A stretch of 37,298 nt of DNA from the IMG/VR virus record IMGVR_UViG_2872158770_000003. One strand, given 5' to 3'. The notes beneath the pieces are model-generated. The model saw nothing but the letters and a program-made list of their open reading frames with translations. It did no database searches and was not told the origin of the DNA. Shown here piece after piece: positions 465 to 37,298 of this stretch. A program made the translations under genes and the position numbers. How positions within the stretch are numbered: position 1 is the stretch's first letter; the number at the start of each line of letters is the position of its first letter. This stretch comes from a virus. Its lineage: Duplodnaviria > Heunggongvirae > Uroviricota > Caudoviricetes.

Positions 465-522
465 AGATATACCTCCAGTTAAGGATTAAATTTTATTTAC
501 AGTGCCGGGTAATGACTCCAAC

Positions 523-1026: not shown

Positions 1027-1220
1027 CCAACGCCATTCATGGCCATATCAATGATTTTCTGGTGCGTACCGGGTTGAGAAGCGGTGTAAGTGAACTGCAG
1101 TTGCCATGTTTTACGGCAGTGAGAGCAGAGATAGCGCTGATGTCCGGCAGTGCTTTTGCTGTTACGCACCACCCCGTCAGTAGCTGAACAGGAGGGACAG
1201 CTGATAGAAACAGAAGCCAC
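945..1220 (-). CDS. insA: IS1 InsA (91 aa)
   Basis: Translation [43 protein letters not shown]... matches IS1 InsA zinc-finger/HTH protein. Confidence 0.9.
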
Positions 1221-1347
1221 TGGAGCACCTCAAAAACACCATCATACACTAAATCAGTAAGTTGGCAGCATCACCACAGTGCTGAACTTAATTATTCAGA
1301 TTTTGGATTATGCTTTCTCTTCACGAAGTTCCGATTGTTAATTTGGC

Positions 1348-1801: not shown

Positions 1802-2104
1802 ATGAGCAGAAAAACCCAACGTTACTCTAAAGAGTTCAAAGCCGAAGCTGTCAGAACGGTTCCTGAAAATCAACTTTCGATCAGTGAAGGCGCTTCCCGA
1901 TTATCTCTTCCTGAAGGCACTTTAGGACAATGGGTTACCGCCGCCAGAAAAGGGCTCGGTACTCCTGGTTCCCGCACGGTGGCTGAACTGGAATCTGAAA
2001 TTCTGCAACTGCGTAAGGCGTTAAATGAAGCTCGCCTTGAGCGAGATATATTAAAAAAAGCAACAGCGTATTTTGCACAGGAGTCGCTGAAAAATACGCG
2101 TTAA
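1802..2104 (+). CDS. IS600 OrfA (HTH transposase N-terminal protein, 100 aa)
   Basis: Translation MSRKTQRYSKEFKAEAVRTV...LQLRKALNEARLERDILKKATAYF is typical IS3-family OrfA with leucine zipper. Confidence 0.9.
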   Translation: MSRKTQRYSKEFKAEAVRTVPENQLSISEGASRLSLPEGTLGQWVTAARKGLGTPGSRTVAELESEILQLRKALNEARLERDILKKATAYFAQESLKNTR

Positions 2105-2139
2105 TCGAACAATGGCGACAACAATTTCCCATTGAAGCG

Positions 2140-2958
2140 ATGTGTCAGGTATTTGGTGTATCCAGGAGCGGTTATTACAACTGGGTACAGCATGAACCCT
2201 CAGACAGAAAACAAAGTGATGAGCGGCTAAAACTGGAGATTAAGGTGGCACATATCCGCACTCGCGAAACATATGGAACCCGGCGGCTCCAGACGGAGCT
2301 GGCAGAGAATGGCATCATCGTTGGTCGTGACCGACTGGCACGTCTTCGTAAGGAGCTAAGGCTACACTGTAAGCAGAAACGCAAGTTCAGAGCGACTACG
2401 AACTCGAACCACAATCTGCCAGTTGCGCCAAATCTGCTGAACCAGACGTTCGCTCCTACAGCACCAAATCAGGTCTGGGTGGCGGACCTGACGTATGTTG
2501 CCACACAGGAGGGATGGTTGTACCTCGCTGGCATCAAAGATGTTTATACGTGCGAAATTGTCGGCTACGCCATGGGAGAGCGCATGACAAAAGAGCTGAC
2601 AGGTAAAGCCCTGTTTATGGCGCTCAGGAGCCAGCGCCCACCTGCCGGGCTAATCCACCACTCTGATCGAGGTTCACAGTACTGCGCATACGATTACCGG
2701 GTCATACAGGAGCAGTCTGGTCTGAAAACATCAATGTCGCGTAAAGGTAACTGTTACGACAACGCTCCGATGGAAAGCTTCTGGGGAACGCTGAAAAATG
2801 AGAGCCTGAGCCACTATCGTTTTAATAACCGGGATGAAGCCATCTCAGTAATACGGGAATACATTGAGATTTTCTACAATCGTCAGCGTCGTCACTCTCG
2901 TCTGGGGAATATCTCCCCGGCAGCCTTCAGGGAAAAATATCATCAGATGGCTGCTTAA
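2140..2958 (+). CDS. IS600 OrfB (DDE transposase catalytic domain, 272 aa)
   Basis: Translation contains IS3-family integrase-core motifs (WVADLTYV..., HSDRGSQY..., NAPMESFWGTLK); normally expressed as OrfAB fusion. Confidence 0.9.
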   Translation: MCQVFGVSRSGYYNWVQHEPSDRKQSDERLKLEIKVAHIRTRETYGTRRLQTELAENGIIVGRDRLARLRKELRLHCKQKRKFRATTNSNHNLPVAPNLLNQTFAPTAPNQVWVADLTYVATQEGWLYLAGIKDVYTCEIVGYAMGERMTKELTGKALFMALRSQRPPAGLIHHSDRGSQYCAYDYRVIQEQSGLKTSMSRKGNCYDNAPMESFWGTLKNESLSHYRFNNRDEAISVIREYIEIFYNRQRRHSRLGNISPAAFREKYHQMAA

Positions 2959-7823: not shown

Positions 7824-8882
7824 ATGCTTAATACTGTAAAAATATCCAGTTGTGAGTTAATCAACGCCGACTGCCTGGAATTTATCCGGTCGTTACCCGA
7901 AAATTCTGTTGACCTGATAGTCACGGACCCGCCGTACTTTAAAGTGAAGCCTGAGGGCTGGGATAACCAGTGGAAGGGCGACGATGATTACCTGAAGTGG
8001 CTGGACCAGTGTCTGGCGCAGTTCTGGCGGGTGCTGAAACCTGCCGGAAGTCTTTACCTGTTCTGTGGTCATCGCCTGGCATCTGATATCGAAATCATGA
8101 TGCGTGAACGCTTCAGTGTGCTGAACCATATTATCTGGGCGAAGCCGTCCGGACGCTGGAACGGATGCAACAAGGAAAGCCTGCGGGCGTATTTCCCCGC
8201 CACAGAGCGCATTCTGTTCGCGGAACATTATCAGGGGCCGTATCGTCCGAAAGATGCCGGGTATGCGGCGAAGGGCAGTGCACTGAAACAGCATGTGATG
8301 GCCCCGCTGATTTCTTACTTTCGTGATGCGCGAGCTGCCCTGGGGATAACGGCAAAACAGATTGCAGATGCCACAGGAAAGAAAAACATGGTGTCGCACT
8401 GGTTCAGTGCCGGTCAGTGGCAGTTGCCGAATGAAAGCGATTATCTGAAATTACAGGCGCTGTTTGCCCGGGTGGCAGAAGAGAAGCATCGGCGTGGTGA
8501 ACTGGAAAAGCTCCACCACCAGCTGGTGGATACGTATACCTCACTGAACCGGCAGTATGCGGAGCTGCTGAGTGAATATAAACATCTGCGGCGGTATTTT
8601 GGCGTGACGGTGCAGGTGCCGTATACCGATGTGTGGACGCATAAACCGGTGCAGTTCTATCCCGGGAAACATCCGTGCGAAAAACCGGCAGAAATGCTGC
8701 AGCAGATAATCAGCGCTAGCAGTCGTCCGGGTGACCTGATTGCAGATTTTTTCATGGGGTTGGGTTCGACAGTGAAAGCGGCACTGGCGCTCGGGCGTCG
8801 TGCAATTGGCGTTGAGCTGGAGACTGAACGTTTTGAGCAGACGGTTCGGGAAGTACAGGATTTAGTCAGCCAGAACGGATGA
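7824..8882 (+). CDS. DNA methyltransferase (N6-adenine/N4-cytosine, beta-class order) (352 aa)
   Basis: Catalytic DPPY motif near N-terminus (LIVTDPPYF) and SAM-binding FxGxGS motif near C-terminus (DFFMGLGST), i.e. motif IV before motif I. Confidence 0.8.
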   Translation: MLNTVKISSCELINADCLEFIRSLPENSVDLIVTDPPYFKVKPEGWDNQWKGDDDYLKWLDQCLAQFWRVLKPAGSLYLFCGHRLASDIEIMMRERFSVLNHIIWAKPSGRWNGCNKESLRAYFPATERILFAEHYQGPYRPKDAGYAAKGSALKQHVMAPLISYFRDARAALGITAKQIADATGKKNMVSHWFSAGQWQLPNESDYLKLQALFARVAEEKHRRGELEKLHHQLVDTYTSLNRQYAELLSEYKHLRRYFGVTVQVPYTDVWTHKPVQFYPGKHPCEKPAEMLQQIISASSRPGDLIADFFMGLGSTVKAALALGRRAIGVELETERFEQTVREVQDLVSQNG

Positions 8883-10147: not shown

Positions 10148-12001
10148 ATGGCATTTAAACACTATGACGTGGTCAGGGCGGCATCGCCGTCAGACCTTGC
10201 GAAACGACTGACACAAAAACTGAAGGAGGGCTGGCAGCCGTTTGGTAGTCCGGTGGCCATAACCCCTTATACCCTGATGCAGGCGATTGCAGCAGAAGGT
10301 GATGTGGTCGTCAGTGGTGCAACTGAGCCGGAGTGGTACTACGTCATCGTACTGGCCGGGCAATCCAATGCCATGGCTTACGGTGAAGGTCTTCCGCTTC
10401 CGGATTCATACGATGCGCCCCATCCGCGCATTAAGCAACTGGCCCGTCGTAACACAGTGACTCCCGGTGGTGAAGTATGCGTATTTAACGACATCATTCC
10501 TGCTGACCATTGTCTGCATGATGTTCAGGATATGAGTACGATTAACCATCCCCGGGCTGACCTGAGCAAAGGGCAGTACGGCTGTGTCGGACAGGGCTTA
10601 CATATTGCCAAAAAACTGCTTCCGTATATCCCTAATAATGCGGGGATCCTGCTGGTACCATGCTGTTGTGGTGGTTCGGCATTCACCCAGGGCACGGAGG
10701 GGACATTCAGCGAGTCCACGGGGGCCAGTCAGGATTCGGCTCGCTGGGGAGTGGGTAAGCCGTTATATCAGGATCTGCTTTTCCGCACGAAGGCAGCATT
10801 GCAGAAAAACCCGAAAAACGTTTTGCTGGCGATATGCTGGATGCAGGGGGAATTCGATATGACGAATGCCAGTTACGCCCAGCAGCCAGCAGCATTTCTT
10901 GCAATGGTACAGCAGTTCCGTGCTGACCTTGCCGGGCTGGCGGCGCAGTGTCACGGTGGAAGTCCGGCATCAGTCCCCTGGATTTGTGGCGACACGACAT
11001 ACGCGTGGAAACAAGAACACGGTACGCAATATGAAGTGGTATATGGTGCATATAAAGGTAAAGAATCCCAGCAGATTTATTTTGTTCCCTTTATGACCGA
11101 TGGTAGCGGAGTTAATACACCGACAAACAACCCGTCAGAAGATCCTGATATTGCCGGGTCTGGTTATTACGGTTCGGCATCCCGAACGAACAAAAACTGG
11201 GTATCATCAAATCGCCCGACGCATTTCAGCTCATGGGCGCGTCGTGGCATTATTCCCGATCGTATGGCAACTGCTATTCTGAACGTAGCCGGTCGCACCT
11301 TAGCCTTCATTAGTGGTAAGGCACCGGAAATCAAACCCTCGCCCGGCGGCGACACGCCATCGGGGCCGTCTGAAGATGCATCCATACGCACAATCTCCCT
11401 GTTGCCGACAGCCGGAGACGCTGCTGCGCAGGGCTGGAGCATTAAGAATGGCGGAGTTCAGTTGTCAGATGGTGTATTTAAGATCACCAAGCAGAGCAAT
11501 AAAGCCTGGTCCCTGACGCGCCCGGTGGATGACGCAGTCTCCCTGCTGACACGGGGTGGCAGACTGAGCTGTAAGTTTCGACTGTCAGGCGCACTGACCA
11601 ACAACCAGTTCGGTCTGGGAATTTATCTGTATACCGATGTAGCGTTACCTGACGTCGTGGCGATGACCGGGACTGGTAACCCGTTCCTGATGTCGTTCTT
11701 CACCCAGACCACAGACGGCAAACTGAATCTGATGCATCACAAGAAAGCAGGAAACACAAAGTTGGGCGAGTTCGGGAATTACAGTAACGACTGGCTGACG
11801 CTGGAGCTGGTGTTCACCGCCGGCAGTGCCACGGTTACTCCGAAACTGAATGGAGTGGCTGGCCCGGCATTCCAGGTCATAAAAGACAGTCTGACACTGG
11901 GGCTGAATGCGCTGACGCTGACGGATATTACCAAAAATGCAGCGTATGGCGTTGAGATAGAAAGTCTGGTGCTGGAGATAAATGCACCGGCATCATCATA
12001 A
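10148..12001 (+). CDS. nanS-p: prophage NanS-p-type sialate O-acetylesterase (617 aa)
   Basis: RBS GGGAGGA upstream; SGNH-hydrolase-like block VIVLAGQSNAMAYGEG; size and position (after phage tRNAs, before the holin) match Stx-phage nanS-p (recalled). Confidence 0.7.
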   Translation: MAFKHYDVVRAASPSDLAKRLTQKLKEGWQPFGSPVAITPYTLMQAIAAEGDVVVSGATEPEWYYVIVLAGQSNAMAYGEGLPLPDSYDAPHPRIKQLARRNTVTPGGEVCVFNDIIPADHCLHDVQDMSTINHPRADLSKGQYGCVGQGLHIAKKLLPYIPNNAGILLVPCCCGGSAFTQGTEGTFSESTGASQDSARWGVGKPLYQDLLFRTKAALQKNPKNVLLAICWMQGEFDMTNASYAQQPAAFLAMVQQFRADLAGLAAQCHGGSPASVPWICGDTTYAWKQEHGTQYEVVYGAYKGKESQQIYFVPFMTDGSGVNTPTNNPSEDPDIAGSGYYGSASRTNKNWVSSNRPTHFSSWARRGIIPDRMATAILNVAGRTLAFISGKAPEIKPSPGGDTPSGPSEDASIRTISLLPTAGDAAAQGWSIKNGGVQLSDGVFKITKQSNKAWSLTRPVDDAVSLLTRGGRLSCKFRLSGALTNNQFGLGIYLYTDVALPDVVAMTGTGNPFLMSFFTQTTDGKLNLMHHKKAGNTKLGEFGNYSNDWLTLELVFTAGSATVTPKLNGVAGPAFQVIKDSLTLGLNALTLTDITKNAAYGVEIESLVLEINAPASS

Positions 12002-13119: not shown

Positions 13120-13938
13120 TTAAGCAGCCATCTGATGATATTTTTCCCTGAAGGCTGCCGGGGAGATATTCCCCAGACGAGAGTGACGACGCTGACGATT
13201 GTAGAAAATCTCAATGTATTCCCGTATTACTGAGATGGCTTCATCCCGGTTATTAAAACGATAGTGGCTCAGGCTCTCATTTTTCAGCGTTCCCCAGAAG
13301 CTTTCCATCGGAGCGTTGTCGTAACAGTTACCTTTACGCGACATTGATGTTTTCAGACCAGACTGCTCCTGTATGACCCGGTAATCGTATGCGCAGTACT
13401 GTGAACCTCGATCAGAGTGGTGGATTAGCCCGGCAGGTGGGCGCTGGCTCCTGAGCGCCATAAACAGGGCTTTACCTGTCAGCTCTTTTGTCATGCGCTC
13501 TCCCATGGCGTAGCCGACAATTTCGCACGTATAAACATCTTTGATGCCAGCGAGGTACAACCATCCCTCCTGTGTGGCAACATACGTCAGGTCCGCCACC
13601 CAGACCTGATTTGGTGCTGTAGGAGCGAACGTCTGGTTCAGCAGATTTGGCGCAACTGGCAGATTGTGGTTCGAGTTCGTAGTCGCTCTGAACTTGCGTT
13701 TCTGCTTACAGCGTAGCCTTAGCTCCTTACGAAGACGTGCCAGTCGGTCACGACCAACGATGATGCCATTCTCTGCCAGCTCCGTCTGGAGCCGCCGGGT
13801 TCCATATGTTTCGCGAGTGCGGATATGTGCCACCTTAATCTCCAGTTTTAGCCGCTCATCACTTTGTTTTCTGTCTGAGGGTTCATGCTGTACCCAGTTG
13901 TAATAACCGCTCCTGGATACACCAAATACCTGACACAT
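13120..13938 (-). CDS. IS600 OrfB (272 aa)
   Basis: Same protein as 2140-2958 apart from one substitution (R/H). Confidence 0.9.
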   Translation of the reverse strand: MCQVFGVSRSGYYNWVQHEPSDRKQSDERLKLEIKVAHIRTRETYGTRRLQTELAENGIIVGRDRLARLRKELRLRCKQKRKFRATTNSNHNLPVAPNLLNQTFAPTAPNQVWVADLTYVATQEGWLYLAGIKDVYTCEIVGYAMGERMTKELTGKALFMALRSQRPPAGLIHHSDRGSQYCAYDYRVIQEQSGLKTSMSRKGNCYDNAPMESFWGTLKNESLSHYRFNNRDEAISVIREYIEIFYNRQRRHSRLGNISPAAFREKYHQMAA

Positions 13939-13973
13939 CGCTTCAATGGGAAATTGTTGTCGCCATTGTTCGA

Positions 13974-14276
13974 TTAACGCGTATTTTTCAGCGACTCCTG
14001 TGCAAAATACGCTGTTGCTTTTTTTAATATATCTCGCTCAAGGCGAGCTTCATTTAACGCCTTACGCAGTTGCAGAATTTCAGATTCCAGTTCAGCCACC
14101 GTGCGGGAACCAGGAGTACCGAGCCCTTTTCTGGCGGCGGTAACCCATTGTCCTAAAGTGCCTTCAGGAAGAGATAATCGGGAAGCGCCTTCACTGATCG
14201 AAAGTTGATTTTCAGGAACCGTTCTGACAGCTTCGGCTTTGAACTCTTTAGAGTAACGTTGGGTTTTTCTGCTCAT
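13974..14276 (-). CDS. IS600 OrfA (100 aa)
   Basis: Identical to 1802-2104 product. Confidence 0.9.
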   Translation of the reverse strand: MSRKTQRYSKEFKAEAVRTVPENQLSISEGASRLSLPEGTLGQWVTAARKGLGTPGSRTVAELESEILQLRKALNEARLERDILKKATAYFAQESLKNTR

Positions 14277-14332: not shown

Positions 14333-14890
14333 CTACCTCAGCCGGAAGAACAGACTGGCTTCCTCTCTGTTCATCGGCAGATAGCCTATTTCATCCAGGA
14401 TCAACACCCGGGCATAACTCAGTTGCTGTAGCTGACGCTCCAGCCGGTTTTCCTGTTTCGCTTTCATCAGTGTCGCGATCAGTCTGTCCAGTGGCATAAA
14501 CAGTACCCGATGTCCCGCATCCACCGCTTTCACGCCAAGAGCTATGGCCAGATGAGTTTTTCCGACACCAGGAGGGCCCAGCAGGATCACGTTTTCGCTG
14601 CGCTCCACGAACGCCAGACCAGCCAGTTCCCGGACAACCTTACGGTCGATGCCCGGCTGGAAGGTAAAGTCGAACTGCTCCAGCGTTTTGACCCACGGCA
14701 GACGAGCCTGCTTCAGCCTGGACTCCATACCGCGCTGATGCCTGCCGTTCCATTCCTGCTGTAGCGCCATGCACAGGAACTCCCGGTAGTTCAGCTCTTT
14801 TTTAGCTGCCTGTTCCAGCAGGCTTTCAACGTGATAACTCAGATGCTCCATTTTCAGGCGACTCAGCAGGACTTCCAGTTCATGCATCAC
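14333..14890 (-). pseudogene. istB: IS21-family helper ATPase IstB, C-terminally truncated by IS600 (185 aa remain)
   Basis: Walker A LLGPPGVGKTHLA and Walker B VLILDEIGY present; frame runs into the IS600 terminus where a stop is supplied by IS600 sequence. Confidence 0.75.
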
Positions 14891-16160
14891 AACAGCTCCT
14901 CATAGGCACTCAGTGGTCGATGTTCCACCTGACTGACCTGCTGCCAGAGCGGGGCGTGATGCTCCGGCACTGTCTGCCAGCCAGACGATGCTGAACAGAG
15001 GCGATGTGAGGCCACCAGTTTCTCATTACTGTAGATCCGCAACTCGTCATCCAGCGATATTCGTATCGATACCGGCTGACCACACAGCGCTTCGGGAACG
15101 CTGTAACGATTACCACCAACCTCGATATAGCTGTCCCAGGACACATGGCGGATATCGAAGTAACTGGTATCGAAGTCTGTATCCGGTAACGGCTGCAGAT
15201 GTTCCTGCTCCAGCGCGAAGCGCTGTTCCGGCGTTTCTTTGAACTGGCGAAGCTCCCGTTTGTCAGCCACATCGGCTATCCATTGCTCCAGTTGTTGATT
15301 GACATGAGTGAAGCTGTCGAACCTGCGGTACCGGACGAAGAAGTTCTCCTTGAGGTATTTCACCATCCGCTCAACCTTACCTTTTGTTCTGGCCCTGCGT
15401 GGACGGCATGCCCGTGGCAGGAAGTTATAGTGGTCAGCCAGCAACAGGAATCCGGAGTTGAACACGACTTTCCCGTTGTTATTCTTCAGCACCGCAGCCT
15501 TCTGGTTATCAACCAGCACCGTTTTCACACAACCACCGAAGTAGCGGAAGGCGCGAACCAGTGATTCGTAGGTATGCTCAGCATCCTGTTTTGGTGCGGC
15601 GAAGACATGGAAGCTGCGGGAGAACCCCAGCGTATTAACCGCAAAGTTAACTTTGCACCGTTGCCCGGCAACCTCCACCTCAACTTCGCCCCAGTCATGC
15701 TGGAGCTGGTATCCAGGCTGAGTTTCGAAGCGAACTGTTCTTTTTGACGGACGCATTTTACGTTTGGGCTGGATGTAGTAACGCAGCATGGAACGTCCGC
15801 CCGTATAACCCATTGCCTTAATCTCCGCGAAGATAACCTCGCTATTCCAGACATTCTCTGCCAGGCGCATGTCGATGTAATCCATAAACGGTTTCAGCTT
15901 AACCATTTTGTGGCGGGTCTTTCTGGCTGGCGGTTCAGGGTATTTGAGGTAGCGTCTGACCGTCCGTTCAGAGCAACCAATCTGAGTCGCAATATCGACG
16001 ATGTACGCGCCCTGCTGGCGCATTTGCTTTATCATGTAAAAGTCCTCTCTGCTCAGCATGTTGATGTCCTTTCTGGTGTGAGAACCTTAAGGAAACAACA
16101 TGTTGGGTGGAGCGGACAATCCAAATGGCGAATTACCGTCTTATATCACTGGCGCTGACA
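14341..16160 (-). mobile_element. IS21-family element, partial: one terminus at 16160, other end removed by IS600
   Basis: istA then istB on minus strand; high-coordinate terminus reads ...CTGACA, placed where homology to FII begins at 16161; istB cut at the IS600 boundary. Confidence 0.6.
14887..16059 (-). CDS. istA: IS21-family transposase IstA (390 aa)
   Basis: N-terminal HTH and DDE integrase-core-like region; 4-nt overlap with istB as in IS21-family operons. Confidence 0.8.
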   Translation of the reverse strand: MLSREDFYMIKQMRQQGAYIVDIATQIGCSERTVRRYLKYPEPPARKTRHKMVKLKPFMDYIDMRLAENVWNSEVIFAEIKAMGYTGGRSMLRYYIQPKRKMRPSKRTVRFETQPGYQLQHDWGEVEVEVAGQRCKVNFAVNTLGFSRSFHVFAAPKQDAEHTYESLVRAFRYFGGCVKTVLVDNQKAAVLKNNNGKVVFNSGFLLLADHYNFLPRACRPRRARTKGKVERMVKYLKENFFVRYRRFDSFTHVNQQLEQWIADVADKRELRQFKETPEQRFALEQEHLQPLPDTDFDTSYFDIRHVSWDSYIEVGGNRYSVPEALCGQPVSIRISLDDELRIYSNEKLVASHRLCSASSGWQTVPEHHAPLWQQVSQVEHRPLSAYEELL

Positions 16161-28368: not shown

Positions 28369-30996
28369 ATGACAGTAAAAATTTCTGGCGTGCTTAAAGA
28401 TGGCACAGGAAAACCAGTACAGAACTGCACCATTGTGCTGAAGGCCAGACGAACCAGCAGCACGATGGTGGTGAACACGGTGGCCTCTGAAAATCCGGAT
28501 GAAGCCGGACGTTACAGCATGGATGTTGAGCATGGTCAGTACAGCGTCACCCTGCTGGTTGAAGGTTTTCCGCCTTCACATGCCGGGACCATTACCGTCT
28601 ATGAAGGTTCCAGACCAGGTACGCTGAATGATTTTCTCGGTGCCATGACGGAGGATGATGTCCGACCGGAGGCACTGCGCCGCTTTGAGCAGATGGTGGA
28701 AGAGGTGTCACGTAACGCCTCCGCGGTTGCACAGAATACGGCAGCCGCGAAAAAATCAGCCAGCGAGGCGGCAACTCATGCAACCGATGCTGCAGCCTCA
28801 GCACGTGCCGCCAGCACGTCAGCCGGACAGGCCGCGTCGTCGGCTCAGTCAGCGTCTTCCAGCGCAGGAACGGCATCGACAAAGGCCCGTGAAGCAGCAA
28901 AAAGTGCTGCTGCAGAGTCATCAAAAAGCGCGGCAGCTACCAGCGCCAGTGCCGCGAAAACGTCAGAAACGAATGCCGCAGCATCACAAAAATCGGCAGC
29001 CACTTCTGCATCCACAGCGACCACGAAGGCGTCAGAAGCTGCCACCTCGGCACGGGGTGCGGCGGCCTCAAAAGAGGCAGCGAAATCTTCAGAAACGAAT
29101 GCATCATCAAGTGCCAGTAGTGCAGCTTCCTCGGCAACGGCGGCAGGAAATTCCGCGAAGGCGGCAAAAACGTCCGAGACGAACGCTAAGTCTTCTGAAA
29201 CAGCAGCGGGACAGAGCGCCTCAGCTGCGGCAGGTTCAAAAACAGCGGCTGCATTATCTGCCAGTGCCGCGTCAACAAGTGCCGGGCAGGCCTCAGCCAG
29301 TGCCACCGCCGCCGGAAAATCGGCAGAAAGCGCCGCATCATCCGCTTCAACAGCCACAACGAAGGCTGGCAAAGCCACTGAGCAAGCCACTGCAGCAGCG
29401 AGGTCTGCTTCTGCAGCAAAAACCTCTGAAACAAATGCAAAGACTTCAGCAGACAATGCTGCTTCCTCTAAGGCAGCAGCCGCATCGTCAGCCAGTTCAG
29501 CGGCGTCATCGGCATCATCTGCGTCTGCTTCAAAAGATGAGGCGACCAGACAAGCGTCAGCAGCGAAAGGTAGTGCCACGACAGCAACAACGAAAGCATC
29601 AGAGGCGGCAGGCAGTGCGACGGCTGCATCTCAGAGCAAAGTTGCTGCTGAATCCGCGGCAACGCGCGCCGAGACAGCAGCAAAACGGGCAGAGGATATT
29701 GCATCCGCCGTGGCGCTGGAGGATGCGAGCACGACGAAAAAGGGGATAGTACAGCTCAGCAGTGCGACCAACAGCACTTCCGAGTCACTGGCGGCAACGC
29801 CAAAAGCGGTTAAGGCGGTAATGGGTGAAACGAACAAGAAAGCGCCCTTAAATAGTCCTGCACTGACCGGAACGCCAACAACACCAACTGCGCGACAGGG
29901 AACGAATAATACCCAAATCGCAAGCACGGCTTTCGTTATGGCTGCGATTGCCGCCCTTGTAGATTCGTCACCTGATGCACTGAACACGCTGAACGAGCTG
30001 GCTGCGGCGCTGGGCAACGACCCGAATTTTGCGACCACCATGACTAACGCGCTTGCGGGTAAGCAACCGAAAGATGCCACCCTGACGGCGCTGGCCGGAC
30101 TTACTACTGCGGCAGGCAAGTTTCCGTATTTTACGGGGAATGATGTCGCCAGCCTGGCAACCCTGACAAAAGTCGGGCGGGATATTCTTGCGAAATCGAC
30201 CGTTGCTGCCGTTATCGAATACCTCGGTTTACGAGAACTCGGCACAAGCGGGGAGAAAATACCGTTACTCAGTACAGCGAATACCTGGACTAATCGACAA
30301 ACATTCAGCGGTGGCCTTTCTGGTGAACTATCCGGCAATGCTTCTACAGCTGCAAAATTAAAAACTGCCAGGAAAATAAGCAATGTGGCTTTTGATGGTT
30401 CCTCCGATATCACATTAAAAGCAAGTCATGTTGGTGCGTTTGCCTTAGGGAAAACAGGAAGCACCGTTGCGAATGATAAAGCAGTTGGATGGAACTGGAG
30501 TAGCGGAGCCTATAACGCAACTATTAGTGGTGCATCAACGTTAATTATTCATTTTTATATGGGAGAAGGAAGTTGTCCTGCAGCTCAGTTTCGGATTAAT
30601 TATAAAAATGGCGGTATTTTTTATCGTTCAGCCCGTGATGGTTATGGTTTTGAAGCCGACTGGTCCGAATTTTACACCACCAGAAAACCTTCAGCAGGAG
30701 ATGTTGGTGCACTGCCGTTATCTGGTGGTCAACTGAATGGTGCACTGGGTATCGGAACATCCAGTGCTCTTGGCGGTAATTCGATTGTATTGGGTGATAA
30801 TGACACGGGCTTTAAACAAAAAGGCGATGGTAATCTGGATGTTTATGCTAATAACGTCCATGTTATGCGCTTTGTCTCCGGAAGCATTCAAAGTAATAAA
30901 ACCATAAATATTACGGGACGTGTTAATCCCTCGGATTACGGTAACTTTGATTCCCGCTATGTGAGAGATGTCAGACTTGGCACACGAGTTGTTTAG
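28369..30996 (+). CDS. stf: side tail fiber protein Stf (875 aa to an in-frame amber; frame continues to 31146)
   Basis: Lambda Stf-like N-terminus MTVKISGVLKDGTGKPVQNCTIVLKARRTSSTMVVNTVASE; long Ala/Ser/Thr-rich repeat region; crosses invertase crossover site at 30212-30237. Confidence 0.8.
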   Translation: MTVKISGVLKDGTGKPVQNCTIVLKARRTSSTMVVNTVASENPDEAGRYSMDVEHGQYSVTLLVEGFPPSHAGTITVYEGSRPGTLNDFLGAMTEDDVRPEALRRFEQMVEEVSRNASAVAQNTAAAKKSASEAATHATDAAASARAASTSAGQAASSAQSASSSAGTASTKAREAAKSAAAESSKSAAATSASAAKTSETNAAASQKSAATSASTATTKASEAATSARGAAASKEAAKSSETNASSSASSAASSATAAGNSAKAAKTSETNAKSSETAAGQSASAAAGSKTAAALSASAASTSAGQASASATAAGKSAESAASSASTATTKAGKATEQATAAARSASAAKTSETNAKTSADNAASSKAAAASSASSAASSASSASASKDEATRQASAAKGSATTATTKASEAAGSATAASQSKVAAESAATRAETAAKRAEDIASAVALEDASTTKKGIVQLSSATNSTSESLAATPKAVKAVMGETNKKAPLNSPALTGTPTTPTARQGTNNTQIASTAFVMAAIAALVDSSPDALNTLNELAAALGNDPNFATTMTNALAGKQPKDATLTALAGLTTAAGKFPYFTGNDVASLATLTKVGRDILAKSTVAAVIEYLGLRELGTSGEKIPLLSTANTWTNRQTFSGGLSGELSGNASTAAKLKTARKISNVAFDGSSDITLKASHVGAFALGKTGSTVANDKAVGWNWSSGAYNATISGASTLIIHFYMGEGSCPAAQFRINYKNGGIFYRSARDGYGFEADWSEFYTTRKPSAGDVGALPLSGGQLNGALGIGTSSALGGNSIVLGDNDTGFKQKGDGNLDVYANNVHVMRFVSGSIQSNKTINITGRVNPSDYGNFDSRYVRDVRLGTRVV
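30212..30237. other. Pin/Gin/Hin-type invertase crossover site (left), inside stf
   Basis: TTATCGAATACCTCGGTTTACGAGAA is an inverted match (22/26) to the site at 33127-33153. Confidence 0.65.
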
Positions 30997-31148
30997 ACCA
31001 TGAAGAAAGGCGTGATGTATGAAAAATCAGGCCATGTAATCACGGGGCTTGGTATTATCGGTGAAGTCGATGGTGATGATCCGGCAGTATTCAGACCAAT
31101 ACAAAAGTTAATTAACGGAACATGGTATAACGTATCGCAGGTATAATC

Positions 31149-31682
31149 ATGCAGCATTTAAAAAACATTGTCGCAGGTAATCCAAAAACCGTTGAACAAT
31201 ACCAGCTAACAAAGAATTTTGATGTTATCTGGTTATGGTCCGAAGATGGAAAAAATTGGCATGAGGAATTAAAAAACTTTCAGGAGGATACAATAAAACT
31301 GGCTTACACAGTTGAGGGAATAATTATTGCTATAGACAAGGATGTATCAGCAATTAATCCAGAAGGTTTAAGTGTCGTTGAGTTGCCTGATATTACAGCA
31401 AATCGCCGGGCTGATATTTCGGGCAACTGGATGTTCAAAGATGGTGCGGTGATAAAGCGAACTTATACCGAGGAAGAGCAAAGGCAACAAGCGGAAAATG
31501 AAAAGCAGAGCCTGCTGCAGCTCGTCAGGGATAAAACCCAGCTGTGGGACTCTCAGCTACAGCTGGGCATCATTTCCGATGAGAATAAACAAAAATTAAC
31601 CGAGTGGATGCTCTATGCGCAGAAGGTTGAATCCACAGACACCTCCAGCCTGCCAGTAACGTTTCCCGAACAACCAGAATGA
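31149..31682 (+). CDS. tfa: tail fiber assembly protein Tfa (177 aa)
   Basis: N-terminus [22 protein letters not shown]... typical of Tfa chaperones; paralogous to the minus-strand copy at 31711-32238. Confidence 0.75.
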
Positions 31683-31685
31683 GAG

Positions 31686-31714
31686 AAGGCCCGCTATCGG
31701 GCCTTAATTTTTAT
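31686..31714 (+). terminator. terminator hairpin between the convergent tfa genes
   Basis: 8-bp stem AAGGCCCG/CGGGCCTT, loop CTAT, then AATTTTTATT. Confidence 0.6.
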
Positions 31715-32238
31715 TCAGGCTTTTGTGGCCATTCAGGATTTGCCGTATCCACACGGCTGACCAGAACACTGTAGCGTTCCCATGCTTCCAGTCGTGTGCG
31801 TTCCTCGTCTGTTGCCATATTCAGCCTGACAGCGCGTTCCAGCGGCTGGATGACTGATTCAGCTTCGGAAAGCAATGCGGCCTTTTGTGATTCGGCCTGT
31901 TGTTGCAGTTCCTGTTCTGTATATTCCCTCTTTACTACTTTACCATCCAGAAACATCCATTTTCCGTTATTGTCTGCGTGACGATTTGCCGTAATATCAG
32001 GAACTTCAACTATGCTTAGCCCTTCAGGATTAATAGTTGAAACGTCTTTACTGACAGCAACGATGATGTTGTTCTCATCGTAAGCAATTTTTATGGTGTC
32101 TGGCTGAAAATTCTTTTGTTCCTCATACCAGTTTTTGCCATCTTCGCAAAAGAGCCATACCACGCCCGCTTTTTTAGTTAGCTGGTATTGTTCCGGTGTT
32201 TTCGGATTCCCGGCCTTAATATTTTTCAGGTGCATCAT
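31711..32238 (-). CDS. tfa: alternative tail fiber assembly protein Tfa' (about 175 aa from MHLKN)
   Basis: [21 protein letters not shown]...[25 protein letters not shown]; ORF track's longer 31711-32274 form overlaps the stf' end. Confidence 0.7.
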
Positions 32239-32239
32239 C

Positions 32240-33126
32240 TTAAACACTCCCCACGTTGTACCATATTCCCCCAATCAATTTCTGAATTGGCCTTCTGGCA
32301 ACAGTGTCGACAATATCATCCGCATTGCTGTTAATTGCGGCTGTTAAAACATAACCTGACGCATCGCCAAAGCCGTAGTCGCGCCATACGTTTTTATATT
32401 CAATGCTGCCAAGACGAATATCCCGAACGACATGATTATGCAGCCATGTGCTTAACCAGTTGTTTTCCCACACTGAACCATAAATATCGCCACTAGACGC
32501 AACTTGCGCACCACTTCCCAGCGCAAATCCCCCATCTGTTTTAAAAATGAAATCACCACCACCATCTGAACCGTTATTAATATGAACACCATCACCACCG
32601 TTATCTTTCCACAAAAACATACGAATTCTTCCGTCTTCGTTGGCGAATGTAATGTGGTGGCGGTAATTACTTTTTAATCTAAAATTGCTGCCATTAGATT
32701 CAATATCTTTATAAAGATGTAATCCTAACTCATCAATATGTCCGATGCGCGAACCATTTGAATAGAAGCTAATAATACCATCTCCATCTTGCCTAAATCC
32801 GGTGTCGTTATCTCCCAGAACAATGGAGTTTTCACCCAGTGCGTTATCAGTAGCTCCAATAGCTAGACCTCCTTTAATTTTGGCCCCGTGGCTGACAGAT
32901 ATAGCACCTGTTCTCAGATTTATAGCGAATGGCCTTAATGGGCCGATATTACCGTTTTCGCCTTGTCCTTCAGCCGTCGGAATGAAATGAAGAAAATCTT
33001 CTGAACGACGGAAAATTAGACCGAAGGTATCATTGAAAATTCGCAGCGCATTCACCGTGCCAATTTTCAGTTCTCCGGTCATTTTATCGCCGGAACGCTG
33101 AACGGCGTTACCAGCCTTGTTTACCG
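32240..33126 (-). CDS. alternative side-tail-fiber C-terminal cassette (Stf'), no own start; would fuse to stf constant part after inversion
   Basis: Minus-strand frame open from the crossover site; ends ...[17 protein letters not shown], homologous to the plus-strand stf end; recombining the half-sites gives an in-frame junction. Confidence 0.6.
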
Positions 33127-33153
33127 TTTCCTGTAAACCGAGGTTTTAGATAA
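33127..33153. other. Pin/Gin/Hin-type invertase crossover site (right), next to the invertase gene
   Basis: TTTCCTGTAAACCGAGGTTTTAGATAA; reverse complement matches 30212-30237. Confidence 0.65.
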
Positions 33154-33207
33154 TGGCGGTTTCTGGCCTGCATGGCATGATTTGTGCTTTTGGACGGGAG
33201 ATTCAGC

Positions 33208-33450
33208 GTGCTGATTGGCTATGTAAGGGTATCAACAAATGACCAGAATACAGACCTGCAACGAAACGCTCTTGTTTGTGCAGGATATGAACAAATATTT
33301 GAAGATAAATTAAGCGGAACAAGGACAGGCCGACCTGGATTAAAACGTGCTTTAAAGCGCCTTCAAAAAGGTGACGCACTGGTTGTCTGAAAACTGGACT
33401 GACTGGGTCACTGTATGCGGCATCTTGTCGTGCTGGTGGTGGAAGCCTAG
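33208..33450 (+). pseudogene. pin: serine DNA invertase (Pin/Gin/Hin family), decayed: in-frame stops and loss of C-terminal half
   Basis: GTG start; LIGYVRVSTNDQNTDLQRNALVCAGYEQIFEDKLSGTRTGRPGLKRALKRLQKGDALVV has the catalytic Ser region; then TGA at 33388-33390 and further stops, and the rest of the gene is absent. Confidence 0.75.
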
Positions 33451-33534
33451 AAAAAGTATCGGGTGTTGCTGAACCGTGTTGATACATCAACTGCACCTGA
33501 TATTGAGTGGCCTACGAACCCTGTCAGGGAGTAA
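33451..33534 (+). pseudogene. 3' remnant of a tfa gene fused to the pin remnant
   Basis: Translates [26 protein letters not shown], the conserved Tfa C-terminal motif; near-identical DNA recurs at 34509-34583. Confidence 0.5.
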
Positions 33535-33588
33535 TCATTGGGATTATGCCGCAGCACGTCTTAAGCAAGAACGTGCTGCGGTTGGATG

Positions 33589-34257
33589 CTATTTTTTCCC
33601 TGAAGCGGAAAACATTACTACAGTACCTTGAACCCTGGTTTTAACATTCTCGAAATGCTCTGAGAGTATATGTGTTAAGCCTTCTTCGGAATCTTTTGTG
33701 TTTGAAAAGATGCCTTTCTGATTGTAAATGCGCATCAGTTTTTGACCGAAGCTATTGTGCACAACTCCATCGCCAAGAATTGTGGCTCCGTATAGAGTTC
33801 CATCGTCAGTTAAGGCCTGCGCCGCATTGCGTATTACACAGCTTTTTGTAGATATATTTCCAGGCAGGCAGTGAAGAAGGTAAAACATGGAAATGGAATC
33901 AAATTGACCATGTAACGCCGCGGGATAAGGTTCAAAAACATCATGGCTAATTTTATGTTTAATTTTTGATTCCCCAGCCCTTGTAGATGCCGCGTTCAGG
34001 CTAGCTTCGTTCAAATCCATTAAAGATATCAGACTACTCTCAGGTACGTGAGTAAGGTAAAACCCAGTTCCAACACCAATATCCAGATGGTTGTTACCTA
34101 AATGTTCCAGAAAGTGTGGAAGAAGGTGTTCCTTTGTAGGACATCCCCATGCAAGCCGATTTGATACTCCCAAAACCCACCAGTCATAAAGCTTTAGGGT
34201 AAGTGGTGTGTAAATTTTAGCCCCATCATCTGTGTTTGTTTTCATTGATTTCACCAT
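33589..34257 (-). CDS. class I SAM-dependent methyltransferase (222 aa), probably small-molecule/protein type
   Basis: Rossmann motif I HLDIGVGTGFYL and downstream acidic residue; single minus-strand gene between two direct repeats. Confidence 0.7.
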   Translation of the reverse strand: MVKSMKTNTDDGAKIYTPLTLKLYDWWVLGVSNRLAWGCPTKEHLLPHFLEHLGNNHLDIGVGTGFYLTHVPESSLISLMDLNEASLNAASTRAGESKIKHKISHDVFEPYPAALHGQFDSISMFYLLHCLPGNISTKSCVIRNAAQALTDDGTLYGATILGDGVVHNSFGQKLMRIYNQKGIFSNTKDSEEGLTHILSEHFENVKTRVQGTVVMFSASGKK

Positions 34258-34349
34258 GTTATAGTTTTATTTGTGAATTAAATCAATTATGGCGATGAAT
34301 TACAAGGGGTTAAATGCTGCCGCAGCATAGCGATATTGAAATAGCCTAG

Positions 34350-34583
34350 TATGCTTCGATACAGCAGGAGCCGAATGGCTGGAAGACCGTCACCACACAG
34401 TTCTACATCCAGGAATTTAGTGAGTATATTGCGCCACTGCAGGATGCTGTAGATCTGGAAATCGCAACGGAGGAAGAAAGATCGTTGCTGGAGGCATGGA
34501 ATAAATATCGGGTATTGTTGAATCGTGTTGATACATCAACTGCACCTGATATTGAGTGGCCTGCAAATCCTGTCAGGGAGTAA
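34350..34583 (+). pseudogene. 3' fragment of a tfa gene
   Basis: In-frame from a TAG at 34347; ends ...[37 protein letters not shown]; no start codon. Confidence 0.5.
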
Positions 34584-34657
34584 TCATTGGGATTATGCCG
34601 CAGGTGATGCTGCCAACTTACTGATTTAGTGTATGATGGTGTTTTTGAGGTGCTCCA

Positions 34658-34933
34658 GTGGCTTCTGTTTCTATCAGCTGTCCCTCCTGTTCAGCTACTG
34701 ACGGGGTGGTGCGTAACGGCAAAAGCACTGCCGGACATCAGCGCTATCTCTGCTCTCACTGCCGTAAAACATGGCAACTGCAGTTCACTTACACCGCTTC
34801 TCAACCCGGTACGCACCAGAAAATCATTGATATGGCCATGAATGGCGTTGGATGCCGGGCAACTGCACGCATTATGGGCGTTGGCCTCAACACGATTTTA
34901 CGTCACTTAAAAAACTCAGGCCGCAGTCGGTAA
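34658..34933 (+). CDS. insA: IS1 InsA
   Basis: Same protein as 945-1220 with one substitution (G/S at residue 21). Confidence 0.9.
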
Positions 34934-35355
34934 CCTCGCGCATACAGCCGGGCAGTGACGTCATCGTCTGCGCGGAAATGGACGAACAGTGGGGCTATGT
35001 CGGGGCTAAATCGCGCCAGCGCTGGCTGTTTTACGCGTATGACAGTCTCCGGAAGACGGTTGTTGCGCACGTATTCGGTGAACGCACTATGGCGACGCTG
35101 GGGCGTCTTATGAGCCTGCTGTCACCCTTTGACGTGGTGATATGGATGACGGATGGCTGGCCGCTGTATGAATCCCGCCTGAAGGGAAAGCTGCACGTAA
35201 TCAGCAAGCGATATACGCAGCGAATTGAGCGGCATAACCTGAATCTGAGGCAGCACCTGGCACGGCTGGGACGGAAGTCGCTGTCGTTCTCAAAATCGGT
35301 GGAGCTGCATGACAAAGTCATCGGGCATTATCTGAACATAAAACACTATCAATAA
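34852..35355 (+). CDS. insB: IS1 InsB reading frame
   Basis: Identical to 523-1026 product. Confidence 0.9.
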
Positions 35356-35399
35356 GTTGGAGTCATTACCTATGCCGCAGACACGTCGTATGCAGGAAC

Positions 35400-35645
35400 G
35401 TGCTGCGGTTAGTTTGTGAGCTTTCGATAGTGGTTGTTATTTTTGCCCTTATTTGTTCCGGAGGCCATGGTTCAATGGTCCGTCTGCCCCCTGTGGTGAT
35501 GTCAGCAAAATCAGCCACTGCGCGAACCACAATAGCCCGGGAAGATGCTGAAGATCACCAGGTAAAGCTGTCAGCGCAGAAACTGGAAGAACTGCTCGCA
35601 TCAATGGTTAAGGATGAGGTTGATCGCAATGATGGGATTTATTGA
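35400..35645 (+). CDS. hypothetical small protein (81 aa; alternative start)
   Basis: ORF directly after the repeat interrupted by IS1; N-terminal hydrophobic segment; no family recognised. Confidence 0.35.
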   Translation: MLRLVCELSIVVVIFALICSGGHGSMVRLPPVVMSAKSATARTTIAREDAEDHQVKLSAQKLEELLASMVKDEVDRNDGIY

Positions 35646-35771
35646 CGTCAGCGAGAGCAGAAGGAAGAACTGAATAACCTGAATGATTTACGCTCAATCA
35701 GAGCGATGGCGATTAGCGGCAATCACGCTCGATAAAATTAACCTCGGTGATCATCCGGGGTTTTGCATTCA

Positions 35772-36344
35772 TTAAAACCGCATCAACCTTTCCACCAATT
35801 GTTCTTTACGGGCAACGATCCACCCATGTTGCTCCAGATAAAATTTAAACCGTTCCAGAGTGCATACCATCGCATCGGCGGGGACTTTTTCTGTGAACTC
35901 GACCTGACCGTGTTTATCGAAGTGGATCAGTAATGCGCATCCATTATTTGGGGCGGGGGAGTTTTGTGCTGCAGGAGGACGTTTGTGGAGTTCTTCTTCC
36001 ATTGCGTTAAATTTTTCAATGTAAGCTTCTTTTAGTCTGGCTGCTTTTTTGCCAGTAAATCCCATTACGAGGAACATGAAGCCGTCTTTTGTGATCAGGT
36101 AGCATCGTGATTCACGTTCTGCGCCGTTGCCAATTTCGACAGTCTGAACATCGGCCGAAAAGTTGGCTGATGTAAATTCGGGAGAGCAGTCGAGTGTGTC
36201 AATCTTAGCTAAAACGTGTTTATGTTGTTTATCGAAGTAGTCGGCAACAGCTTGAGAGGTGGTAACCAGGCGACCATCTTTGAAAAAGACTTTTGGTGAC
36301 TCGTTAGAAAAAGTTATAGCTGTATTCATATGTGATGACTCCAA
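35772..36344 (-). CDS. Rha-family phage regulatory protein (190 aa)
   Basis: N-terminal LVTTSQAVADYFDKQHKHVLAKIDTL resembles the Rha/ORF6 N-terminal domain signature. Confidence 0.55.
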   Translation of the reverse strand: MESSHMNTAITFSNESPKVFFKDGRLVTTSQAVADYFDKQHKHVLAKIDTLDCSPEFTSANFSADVQTVEIGNGAERESRCYLITKDGFMFLVMGFTGKKAARLKEAYIEKFNAMEEELHKRPPAAQNSPAPNNGCALLIHFDKHGQVEFTEKVPADAMVCTLERFKFYLEQHGWIVARKEQLVERLMRF

Positions 36345-36904
36345 TTAATTGGATGATCACCACCTCTGACGCCAATCAGGGAGGTGGTGAGACGTACAGG
36401 GTTGGCGTAACCGGTCATCACAAAACCCGGCGCGGATTTCTCCGCCCCTGCACGCCCCACCATAATGCGAATGTGGCAATGCTTAACGCAAAAAAAACCG
36501 CAAACGCGGCTATGCGTTGTGATGTTATCCGAGACGCCAATCCCGACAACCGATTTTGCGGTTGTGTGAGGAATATAGCCCCGGAGAACAAAAACTGTCA
36601 ACGGGCAAAAAAATTTCCGTTATCAGGAATGTATAAAATTAAAGCGATCGAGCAAAAAATCCTTTCTGCAAAACTAAAAAAGATTTCAATAAAATCAGGC
36701 AGTTAAAAACACGGAAAAACGGTATAAAAAAGCGCCTCAAAATCCTGTTTTTTCTTTCAGATACAATGTCTTATTGCATTTTTTAAAACATGTCAGTGTG
36801 GTACATGGATATCGATACCATCGCCAATTATAAACTGGGCGGTGCACAGCAACATGATAGCGTACGCCTCGATCCGTGGGTGTTTATGTTCTCAGCAGGA
36901 TATC

Positions 36905-37298
36905 GGGTAATGACTCCAACTTATTGATAGTGTTTTATGTTCAGATAATGCCCGATGACTTTGTCATGCAGCTCCACCGATTTTGAGAACGACAGCGACT
37001 TCCGTCCCAGCCGTGCCAGGTGCTGCCTCAGATTCAGGTTATGCCGCTCAATTCGCTGCGTATATCGCTTGCTGATTACGTGCAGCTTTCCCTTCAGGCG
37101 GGATTCATACAGCGGCCAGCCATCCGTCATCCATATCACCACGTCAAAGGGTGACAGCAGGCTCATAAGACGCCCCAGCGTCGCCATAGTGCGTTCACCG
37201 AATACGTGCGCAACAACCGTCTTCCGGAGACTGTCATACGCGTAAAACAGCCAGCGCTGGCGCGATTTAGCCCCGACATAGCCCCACTGTTCGTCCAT
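36905..37298 (-). mobile_element. IS1, third copy, partial (runs off window end)
   Basis: Terminal repeat GGTAATGACTCCAACTTATTGATAGTG at 36905; sequence identical to the insB end of the other copies. Confidence 0.9.
36921..37298 (-). CDS. insB: IS1 InsB, partial at window edge
   Basis: Translation identical to the C-terminal 125 aa of InsB. Confidence 0.85.

Follow-up and report, generated by a model that had tools for sequence, protein, structure and literature searches.

A tfa-flanked methyltransferase module in the right-end cargo zone of an ompW lambdoid prophage

Introduction

How did a methyltransferase gene come to lie between the ends of two tail-fibre assembly (tfa) genes? The question is raised by a 37,298-nucleotide (nt) stretch of DNA from a virus of the Caudoviricetes (IMG/VR record IMGVR_UViG_2872158770_000003), hereafter the window, near whose right end a minus-strand gene for a class I S-adenosylmethionine (SAM)-dependent methyltransferase stands between two direct repeats that carry tfa 3′ ends, the second repeat being interrupted by the insertion sequence IS1. 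An earlier note, made from the letters of the window alone, had taken this arrangement for cargo acquired or duplicated by recombination between tfa gene ends and then invaded by IS1.

Phage morons and other cargo lie downstream of lambdoid tail-fibre genes, as do lom and bor of lambda, and Tobe and colleagues reportedly described, in 2006, effector loci in prophages of Escherichia coli strains that produce Shiga toxin (STEC). Within the literature that we searched, nothing linked exchangeable effector loci with tail fibre, or tail fibre assembly with SAM-dependent methyltransferase, in lambdoids; likewise no study of the function of YbcY, the K-12 homologue of the enzyme, was found there, ybcY being named only in passing in the papers found.

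Comparing the window with E. coli genomes and isolated phages, we conclude, with a probability of about 80%, that this part of the window represents the cargo zone at the right end of an ompW-integrated lambdoid prophage and that it holds a widespread module of tfa, a ybcY-type methyltransferase gene and tfaX, which would have arisen at a single joint and would move by homologous recombination in tfa ends. The module is already known, being annotated in K-12 and present in most E. coli genomes, and thus offers little for discovery. Its interest lies in YbcY being among the commonest cargo genes of E. coli prophages, in the clean example that the locus gives of lambdoid mosaics being joined by recombination in conserved sequence that encodes the Tfa C-terminus, and in the occurrence of occupied, empty and effector-bearing alleles at one site.

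Results

The module is widespread and older than the window genome

The module and the insertion within it consist of the following parts.

33437–33583, plus strand: direct repeat copy 1, made of the 28 final codons of a tfa gene of lambda type and 50 nt with a stem-loop, from alignment with the full-length tfa of other loci.
33549–33581, no strand assigned: stem-loop with an 11-bp perfect stem, CCGCAGCACGT...ACGTGCTGCGG, separating the convergent tfa end from the stop of the methyltransferase gene, from RNA folding.
33589–34257, minus strand: class I SAM-dependent methyltransferase gene, a ybcY homologue, intact, from Pfam.
34258–34286, minus strand: putative sigma-70 promoter of the methyltransferase gene, TTGATT-17-TATAAC, from an exact pattern match.
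34314–34583, plus strand: tfaX-like relic of a second tfa gene, open reading frame (ORF) MLPQHSDIEIA*..., from translation, tblastn and Pfam.
34486–34602, plus strand: direct repeat copy 2, left part, ending at the IS1 insertion point, from self-alignment.
34603–35370, plus strand: complete IS1 of 768 bp, with insA at 34658–34933 and insB' at 34852–35355, from Pfam InsA and DDE_Tnp_IS1 and the terminal inverted repeats.
35371–35410, plus strand: remainder of copy 2 (right part of the stem-loop) after the second TATGCCGCA copy at 35371–35379, from repeat family D3 and folding.

Without its IS1 and one copy of the target duplication, window 33100–36400 matched E. coli 81009 (sequence type 131 (ST131)-type; locus L001) at 99.6% identity over 2524 nt, at the right end of a lambdoid prophage integrated in ompW, where RefSeq annotates, in order, a recombinase (partial), tfa (partial), the class I SAM methyltransferase, tfa (partial), DUF4376 (partial), Rha, Ash, OmpW (partial) and trpA. 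The 81009 locus shares with the window a fusion of the invertase pseudogene pin to tfa (pin::tfa), both repeats, the DUF4376 fragment, rha and ash, and this identical IS1-free arrangement, the pin::tfa junction included, indicates that the structure is older than the window genome. The module recurs in the ompW prophage of O104:H4, where copy 1 is a full-length tfa. Unlike the window, the ST131 and O104:H4 loci have no IS1 in the stem-loop and encode K3 and K204 in the methyltransferase, where the window encodes T3 and R204, while strain 600055 (L018) has a tfaX without the stop codon that the window carries at codon 12.

The same unit was found beyond the ompW site. Window 33437–34560 (1124 nt) is ~97% identical to tfaD-ybcY-tfaX (b0561–b0563) in the DLP12 prophage of K-12 MG1655 (NC_000913.3, 581,534–583,060), with the same gene order of tfa (plus), methyltransferase (minus) and 5′-truncated tfa (plus), the same promoter string and the same 30 non-Tfa codons at the start of tfaX. 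DLP12 differs in that its ybcY is a pseudogene through a 2-nt deletion, whereas the window gene is intact; in that its copy 1 is the full-length tfaD rather than 28 codons fused to pin; in that its tfaX departs from the window sequence after 34560 and has no second stem-loop, whereas the window relic retains the whole 3′ end and the stem-loop; and in that it is integrated beside appY/ompT rather than in ompW, its module being free of IS1. The viable phage PhiR26_1 has the order J, lom, stf, tfa, 'YbcY', a tfa fragment and, further on, ompT. Among 5426 complete E. coli genomes, methyltransferase DNA was present in 3836, in at most four places per genome and at several prophage sites; the junction of tfa end, stem-loop and methyltransferase occurred in 3066, and that of methyltransferase, promoter and tfaX in 3441. 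Fourteen isolated lambdoid phages encode the enzyme at no less than 98% protein identity, and across all 11 E. coli and phage loci examined its coding sequence was 99.5–99.7% identical. The check proposed in the earlier note, a search for the cassette at tfa-proximal positions elsewhere, was thus positive in K-12 DLP12, ST131, O104:H4 and free phages, and the gene proved to be accessory cargo beside tfa, not an E. coli core gene. The module is a local copy of a common, already annotated cargo of lambda-like E. coli prophages, and as such ordinary.

Two unequal tfa ends flank the methyltransferase gene

Copy 1 spans 33437–33583 and copy 2 spans 34486–34602, resuming at 35380–35410 when IS1 is taken out together with one copy of the duplicated target; thus joined, the two gave an alignment of 148 columns with one gap, 89.2% identical (E = 7e-54). 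A repeat scan returned 118 nt at 90% (33437–33554 and 34486–34603) and 29 nt at 90% (33555–33583 and 35382–35410), so that the pair of repeats reported earlier stands, with limits slightly different from the 33450–33585 first given for copy 1. Translation of both reading frames agreed with the assignment of both copies to Tfa 3′ ends: copy 1 has an in-frame TAG ahead of its 28 codons and its stop at 33532–33534, and copy 2 carries the last ~57 Tfa codons with a stop at 34581–34583 and matches positions 75–130 of the 131-position Pfam profile Caudo_TAP. Both repeats extend ~50 nt past the stop codon and take in a strong stem-loop. Neither copy combines a full-length Caudo_TAP match with an uninterrupted ORF, as a functional tfa would. 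Copies 1 and 2 are non-equivalent cassette ends with different histories, the constant partner of the methyltransferase being copy 2 (tfaX) and copy 1 being whichever tfa sits upstream. In related genomes RefSeq lists a 45-amino-acid 'hypothetical protein' (WP_001309429.1; window 33507–33644, plus strand) that extends over the tfa end, the stem-loop and, on the opposite strand, the methyltransferase's 3′ end; it is probably a spurious call.

The stem-loop at 33549–33581 folds at −28.5 kcal/mol on the plus strand (z −4.3) and at −25.6 kcal/mol on the minus strand (z −4.8), and it accompanies the methyltransferase at every locus examined. Its counterpart in copy 2 is split by the IS1, which has imperfect inverted repeats at its termini and every other hallmark of the element, a perfect 9-bp target duplication (TATGCCGCA at 34594–34602 and 35371–35379) included. 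The insertion point is 11 nt beyond the stop of tfaX, within the second stem-loop's left arm, and the precise empty site exists in E. coli 81009, bearing out what the earlier note had said of IS1. No match in one piece to this IS1 junction was found in the 5426 genomes, and none in the GTDB species representatives. The element disrupts no functional gene and its insertion appears neutral.

The tfaX relic points to a single old joint

The first 30 codons of the tfaX relic show no similarity to Tfa, and Tfa-like residues occupy only positions ~31–89, from ~34404 onward; by tblastn the relic is 98% identical to K-12 TfaX and 97% identical to a 101-amino-acid Tfa fragment of PhiR26_1. A TAG at 34347–34349 (codon 12) is private to the window lineage. 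The non-Tfa 30 codons are common to all cassette loci, which also share about a dozen signature tfaX substitutions by our reading of the alignment. The relic is accordingly a 5′-truncated tfa that, on its left, meets the region upstream of the methyltransferase at a non-homologous junction, the same in every cassette locus examined, and this shared junction, together with the signature substitutions, argues for a single old origin of the methyltransferase-tfaX joint.

Rfam assigns labels to this DNA. The IS009 model (RF02111) aligned end to end (model 1–199) on 34337–34540 of the relic at 110.8 bits, below its gathering threshold of 117, and its consensus is tfa coding sequence with few of its pairs supported; on copy 1, a partial IS009 match (46.4 bits) and one of 32.6 bits to CssrB ('Chromosome-encoded Shigella sRNA B'), whose gathering threshold is 76, fell at 33412–33491 and 33518–33580 on the plus strand. 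As evidence for small RNA (sRNA) genes both families were set aside, being below gathering and, for IS009, modelled on tfa coding sequence, and RF02111 serves here as a label for the tfaX region rather than as evidence for an RNA gene. These matches suggest that some described enterobacterial sRNA candidates were modelled on tfa 3′ ends and their stem-loops.

Recombination in tfa ends probably exchanges the flanks of the module

The left limit of the sequence shared between loci falls at 33437 in the window, ST131, DLP12 and PhiR26_1, at 33461 in ev243 and at 33549, the first position of the stem-loop, in Kati and UTAK-5. At 33437, DLP12 and PhiR26_1 continue into a full tfa, while Kati and UTAK-5 have ydfK and ynaM to the left of theirs. 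On the right, sharing ends at 34538 in PhiR26_1 and ev243 and at 34560 in DLP12, Kati and UTAK-5, and no such limit is seen among the ompW prophages, in which the end of copy 2 and its stem-loop are retained entire. These variable limits leave a constant core of stem-loop, methyltransferase, promoter and the 5′ part of tfaX, and breakpoints inside tfa ends indicate that recombination there shuffles the module. Copy 1 of loci L014 and L018 combines a coding end of the copy-2 type (CCTGCAAATCC) with stem-loop 1, and such hybrids are evidence of crossing-over inside the repeat.

Directly after tfa in cassette-free prophages stands the sequence that in the window follows copy 2:

35457–35735, plus strand: part of a gene of the DUF4376 family, interrupted by an internal stop, from the RefSeq annotation of E. 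coli 81009.

The product predicted for recombination between the repeats (tfa, stem-loop 2, DUF4376 fragment) was matched in one piece in E. coli NMBU-W13E19, at 98.8% over 1005 nt; the other 24 among the matches listed were in two pieces with a span 1049 nt longer, which is the cassette. With a shorter diagnostic query, the contiguous cassette-free junction was found in 20 genomes at 94.8–100% identity, in prophages with different fibres and at both the ompW and the uspF/ompN sites, and among the extracted loci it is contiguous in four (L017, L024, L025 and L026). At the same ompW-prophage position, the module is missing from the STEC strain E. coli 2013C-3250 (L016, 2750–4484); in its stead stand IS1, an effector kinase of the OspG family and the remains of a transposase, and directly after them come the DUF4376 fragment and ompW remnant that the window also has. 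Lying between attR and the tail-fibre genes, the locus belongs to the classical zone for cargo. Of the earlier proposal that cargo was acquired or duplicated by recombination at tfa ends, the part that makes tfa ends the joints of a mosaic therefore stands, given the breakpoints at 33437, 33461, 33549, 34538 and 34560, the recombinant copy-1 alleles and the 20 genomes with a cassette-free allele; the part that would make this a local or recent event does not, the identical arrangement, left junction included, being present in ST131, and the module being known from DLP12 and found in viable phages too.

A decayed invertase gene is fused to copy 1

Immediately left of the module, the tfa end of copy 1 is joined to a remnant of another gene.

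33208–33445, plus strand: pseudogene of pin, a Pin/Gin-type DNA invertase, of which the N-terminal ~79 codons are left, from the Pfam Resolvase N-terminal domain (E = 4.6e-15).

This stretch, which RefSeq labels 'recombinase family protein, missing C-terminus' in E. coli 81009, has in-frame TGA stops at 33388–33390 and 33400–33402 and is 74% identical in nucleotides to K-12 pinE as far as the junction; the recombinase of Kati and UTAK-5, tried as a reference for pin, proved unrelated, and K-12 pinE was taken in its place. At ~33441–33446, pin ...GCTGGTGG joins tfa TGGAAGCC..., and this illegitimate fusion at microhomology trimmed copy 1 to 28 tfa codons, so that copy 1 is no gene end in its original place. 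Upstream, window 28369–33445 is an invertible tail-fibre region of the e14 and Mu G type, with stf at 28369–30996, opposed tfa genes at 31149–31682 (plus) and 31711–32274 (minus), an alternative fibre C-terminus at 32240–33082 (minus) and 30-nt inverted repeats at 30208–30237 and 33128–33157 as crossover sites. Because the Pin invertase is dead, stopped at 33388 and 33400 and truncated at ~33441, the orientation of the fibre is presumably frozen, barring another invertase acting in trans.

The gene is intact and its product, by fold, probably of a small-molecule or lipid type

The sole substantial ORF between the repeats is that of the methyltransferase, and the earlier description of a single minus-strand class I SAM-dependent methyltransferase gene held: it is intact and matched Methyltransf_12 (37.6 bits against a cut-off of 30), Methyltransf_23, Methyltransf_25 and Methyltransf_11 of Pfam above gathering, as well as PHROG 2132, a family of unknown function. 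The SAM-binding GxGxG motif reads GVGTG at residues 57–61, D55, G57, G59, G61 and D77 are invariant in 42 homologues, and the alternating β/α order with a seven-stranded sheet is that of the class I fold. The annotated protein has 222 amino acids and an alternative ATG at 34245 gives 218; the latter is the probable start, since PHROG 2132 and the homologues of other genera align from the second ATG, with M1 of the 218-residue form invariant, and since the −10 hexamer of the promoter touches the annotated ATG. Two changes are private to the window, K3T and K204R, both conservative and in variable columns, so that the gene looks intact. Most alleles begin with ATG followed by AAAAAAAA C, a run of eight A residues (A8; window 34234–34245, minus strand). 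The K-12 pseudogene (L004, ~6800) has its 2-nt deletion at this ATG/A-run (ATAAAAAAAC), and in the window allele the change of AAA to ACA (K3T) interrupts the run, which may be a slippage-prone on/off site.

No (D/N/S)PP(Y/F/W) or PC catalytic motif is present in the protein, which also has no DNA methylase match in Pfam, and no DNA methylase stood among its 50–60 best structural matches. A DNA methylase or anti-restriction role was rejected on the missing catalytic motif and domain and on structural neighbours that are small-molecule enzymes; membership in an anti-phage defence system was rejected as well, the PADLOC models giving nothing significant and just mad2 at E 0.0026 (14.6 bits). NCBIfam gave no match at cut-off, with CpaM and RquA at ~17 bits against cut-offs of 175–180, and a sequence search of the PDB returned only weak matches to juvenile hormone acid methyltransferase (JHAMT) and UbiG. 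The fold resembles those of small-molecule and lipid methyltransferases, namely JHAMT (7ec0), a bacterial phosphatidylethanolamine N-methyltransferase (8ys9), MM_2633 (3dtn) and UbiG (4kdr), with which the protein shares only 11–22% identity, and substrate-defining residues could not be assigned. From this resemblance, the substrate would be of a small-molecule or lipid type rather than DNA. Elsewhere in the prophage stands a genuine N6/N4 DNA methylase (7824–8882, plus strand; Pfam N6_N4_Mtase, E = 8e-42).

The methyltransferase gene has several traits of a moron

At 41.4%, the guanine-plus-cytosine (GC) content of the gene lies below that of the tail genes (56.1%) and that of the window (51.6%). 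In Enterobacter, Salmonella and Yersinia, homologues at 56–65% identity each stand as a single gene in an ordinary part of the chromosome, without phage families, tail-fibre or tfa genes nearby, and given these non-phage contexts the phage copy is best read as a captured host-type gene. The TTGATT-17-TATAAC string recurs in nine other loci, and the table in a study of constitutive RpoD promoters of E. coli K-12 (PMC3946193) gives the same string as the ybcY promoter, notes H-NS in the ybcY/tfaX spacer and lists there also a divergent tfaX promoter. Measured against the definition of a moron that we follow (PMC8065619), the module is present in L018 and absent at the same position from L017, L024, L025 and L026, its composition deviates in GC from that of the surrounding phage genes, and it has a putative promoter string of its own and, after the stop, a stem-loop without a U-tract. 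Like phage morons, it is an opposite-strand gene between the tail-fibre genes and attR that some related prophages lack and in whose place an STEC strain has an effector kinase; it differs from most morons in having a duplicated piece of the adjoining structural-gene operon on either side, and it has no clear intrinsic terminator. On these traits, the methyltransferase would be a moron expressed from the resident prophage.

Discussion

Taking these observations together, we propose that the moving unit consists of the stem-loop, the opposite-strand gene for a methyltransferase of 218 amino acids, its own sigma-70 promoter and the tfaX relic. A phage with tfa, stem-loop and methyltransferase would have been joined once, illegitimately, to the middle of tfa in a phage with tfa, stem-loop and DUF4376, leaving the last ~57 codons of the resident tfa and its stem-loop as the relic that now forms the direct repeat. 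Homologous recombination in tfa ends, which is expected there because the Tfa C-terminal coding sequence is conserved among lambda-type phages, would then move the module between prophages, swap its flanks and at times delete it. In the lineage shared with ST131, an invertible-fibre module would have been placed upstream, followed by the microhomology deletion that fused the decayed pin to 28 tfa codons; in the window's own lineage, tfaX would have gained its TAG and IS1 would have entered the second stem-loop, duplicating TATGCCGCA.

Several points weigh against this reading. The consensus scan called the stem-loop no terminator and no U-run adjoins it on either strand, and with no canonical intrinsic terminator the 'own terminator' of the moron definition has no clear counterpart here. 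The promoter assignment relies on the K-12 promoter table, while K-12 ybcY is itself a pseudogene. The cassette-free alleles could be either ancestral or recurrent deletions, the discriminating substitutions of L017 being patchy and favouring neither. With 0–2 synonymous differences between methyltransferase alleles, dN/dS was uninformative; the substrate class leans on fold resemblance with TM-scores of just 0.55–0.69 at 11–22% identity; and the order of events is inferred from ~15 loci.

Other explanations of the locus fare worse. That the gene was captured or duplicated recently and locally, between tfa genes of co-resident prophages, with the repeats as its footprints, has in its favour that the direct repeats are genuine and that substrates exist, tfa-containing queries matching a median of 2–3 and a maximum of 9–10 places per E. 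coli genome. The IS1-free ST131 structure is nevertheless 99.6% identical, with pin::tfa and both repeats, the same module occurs in K-12, O104:H4 and free phages, and only IS1, the tfaX TAG and two conservative amino-acid changes are private to the window, so that the identical IS1-free allele in unrelated strains largely refutes a local event, which we consider very improbable. Scarcely credible is a dedicated mobile cassette, akin to a transposon, an integron or a miniature element, that inserts into tfa with the repeat as target duplication or recognition site. One gene within direct repeats and a module at several chromosomal sites would suit it, but 33437–34602 contains no transposase, integrase, terminal inverted repeats or attC; the repeat, at 147–215 nt, is much too long for a target duplication; the copies are 11% divergent, their lengths vary by locus and their ends are not constant; and the left partner can be wholly absent (Kati, UTAK-5) while the right copy is truncated at differing points. 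The E. coli sites examined are moreover all prophage right ends or phage genomes, so that the phages themselves explain the movement.

The methyltransferase and tfaX might instead form a functional pair, in tail-fibre biology or through an sRNA, with tfaX retained as a mini-chaperone or as the IS009 RNA and the enzyme acting on a substrate related to fibre or receptor. This would agree with the presence of tfaX alongside the methyltransferase in ~90% of carrier genomes, with the ATG-initiated tfaX ORF of 61–101 amino acids kept in K-12 and in viable phages, with the divergent tfaX promoter of the K-12 table and with the Rfam family modelled on the stretch. The tfaX 3′ end is however truncated or replaced at three points across lineages and has an early TAG in the window, a pattern not expected of a selected product, the IS009 consensus is just tfa coding sequence matched below gathering, no tail-fibre or tfa genes adjoin the enzyme's chromosomal homologues of other genera, and linkage is expected regardless if the joint arose once; a functional pair is accordingly quite unlikely. 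Recombination in tfa ends, as proposed above, could be carried a step further, the duplicated ends serving as portable homology arms that spread the moron among lambdoid prophages with unrelated fibre modules, and the enzyme methylating a lipid or small molecule, in the manner of PmtA for example, and so giving lysogens a selectable phenotype. We regard this extension as speculative and rather unlikely; if true, lysogens would gain, for example, an altered envelope or altered phage adsorption from an enzyme present in ~70% of complete E. coli genomes.

Additional observations

Copy 2 is followed downstream by the DUF4376 fragment and by genes of the Rha family (a regulator) and the Ash family, after which come the 3′ end of ompW and a further IS1. 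Immediately upstream of the ash-rha pair (36601–35772, minus strand), window 36380–36578 (minus strand) matched the Rfam families C4 antisense RNA (75.9 bits) and isrK (72.2 bits), both above gathering, with a c4-a1b1 target match there just under it (43.8 against 46.7 bits). By these matches, the segment looks like an antisense-controlled antirepressor module of the P1/P7 style (IsrK/AnrP-like) at the prophage right end.

The 37-kb window holds three copies of IS1, at 34603–35370 (plus), 36906–37298 (minus) and 508–1275 (minus). The first two are inverted relative to each other, 100% identical over the visible 393 nt, and have between them the DUF4376 fragment, rha, ash and what is left of ompW; the element at 36906–37298 sits at the extreme end of the ompW 3′ remnant (...SAGYR, then IS1). 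Recombination between these two copies that inverts or loses the 1.5-kb segment between them is possible. An IS3-family element is present twice in inverted orientation ~10 kb apart, at 1802–2958 (plus) and 13120–14276 (minus), each copy with a 100-amino-acid HTH_Tnp_1 ORF and a 272-amino-acid rve ORF, and the prophage may have been rearranged between them. An additional ORF with rve and Mu-transposase-C domains lies at 14887–16059 (minus). The density of insertion sequences suggests a Shigella-like or otherwise insertion-sequence-expanded E. coli host. Window 10148–12001 (plus) encodes a DUF1737/SASA protein of the sialate-O-acetylesterase type.

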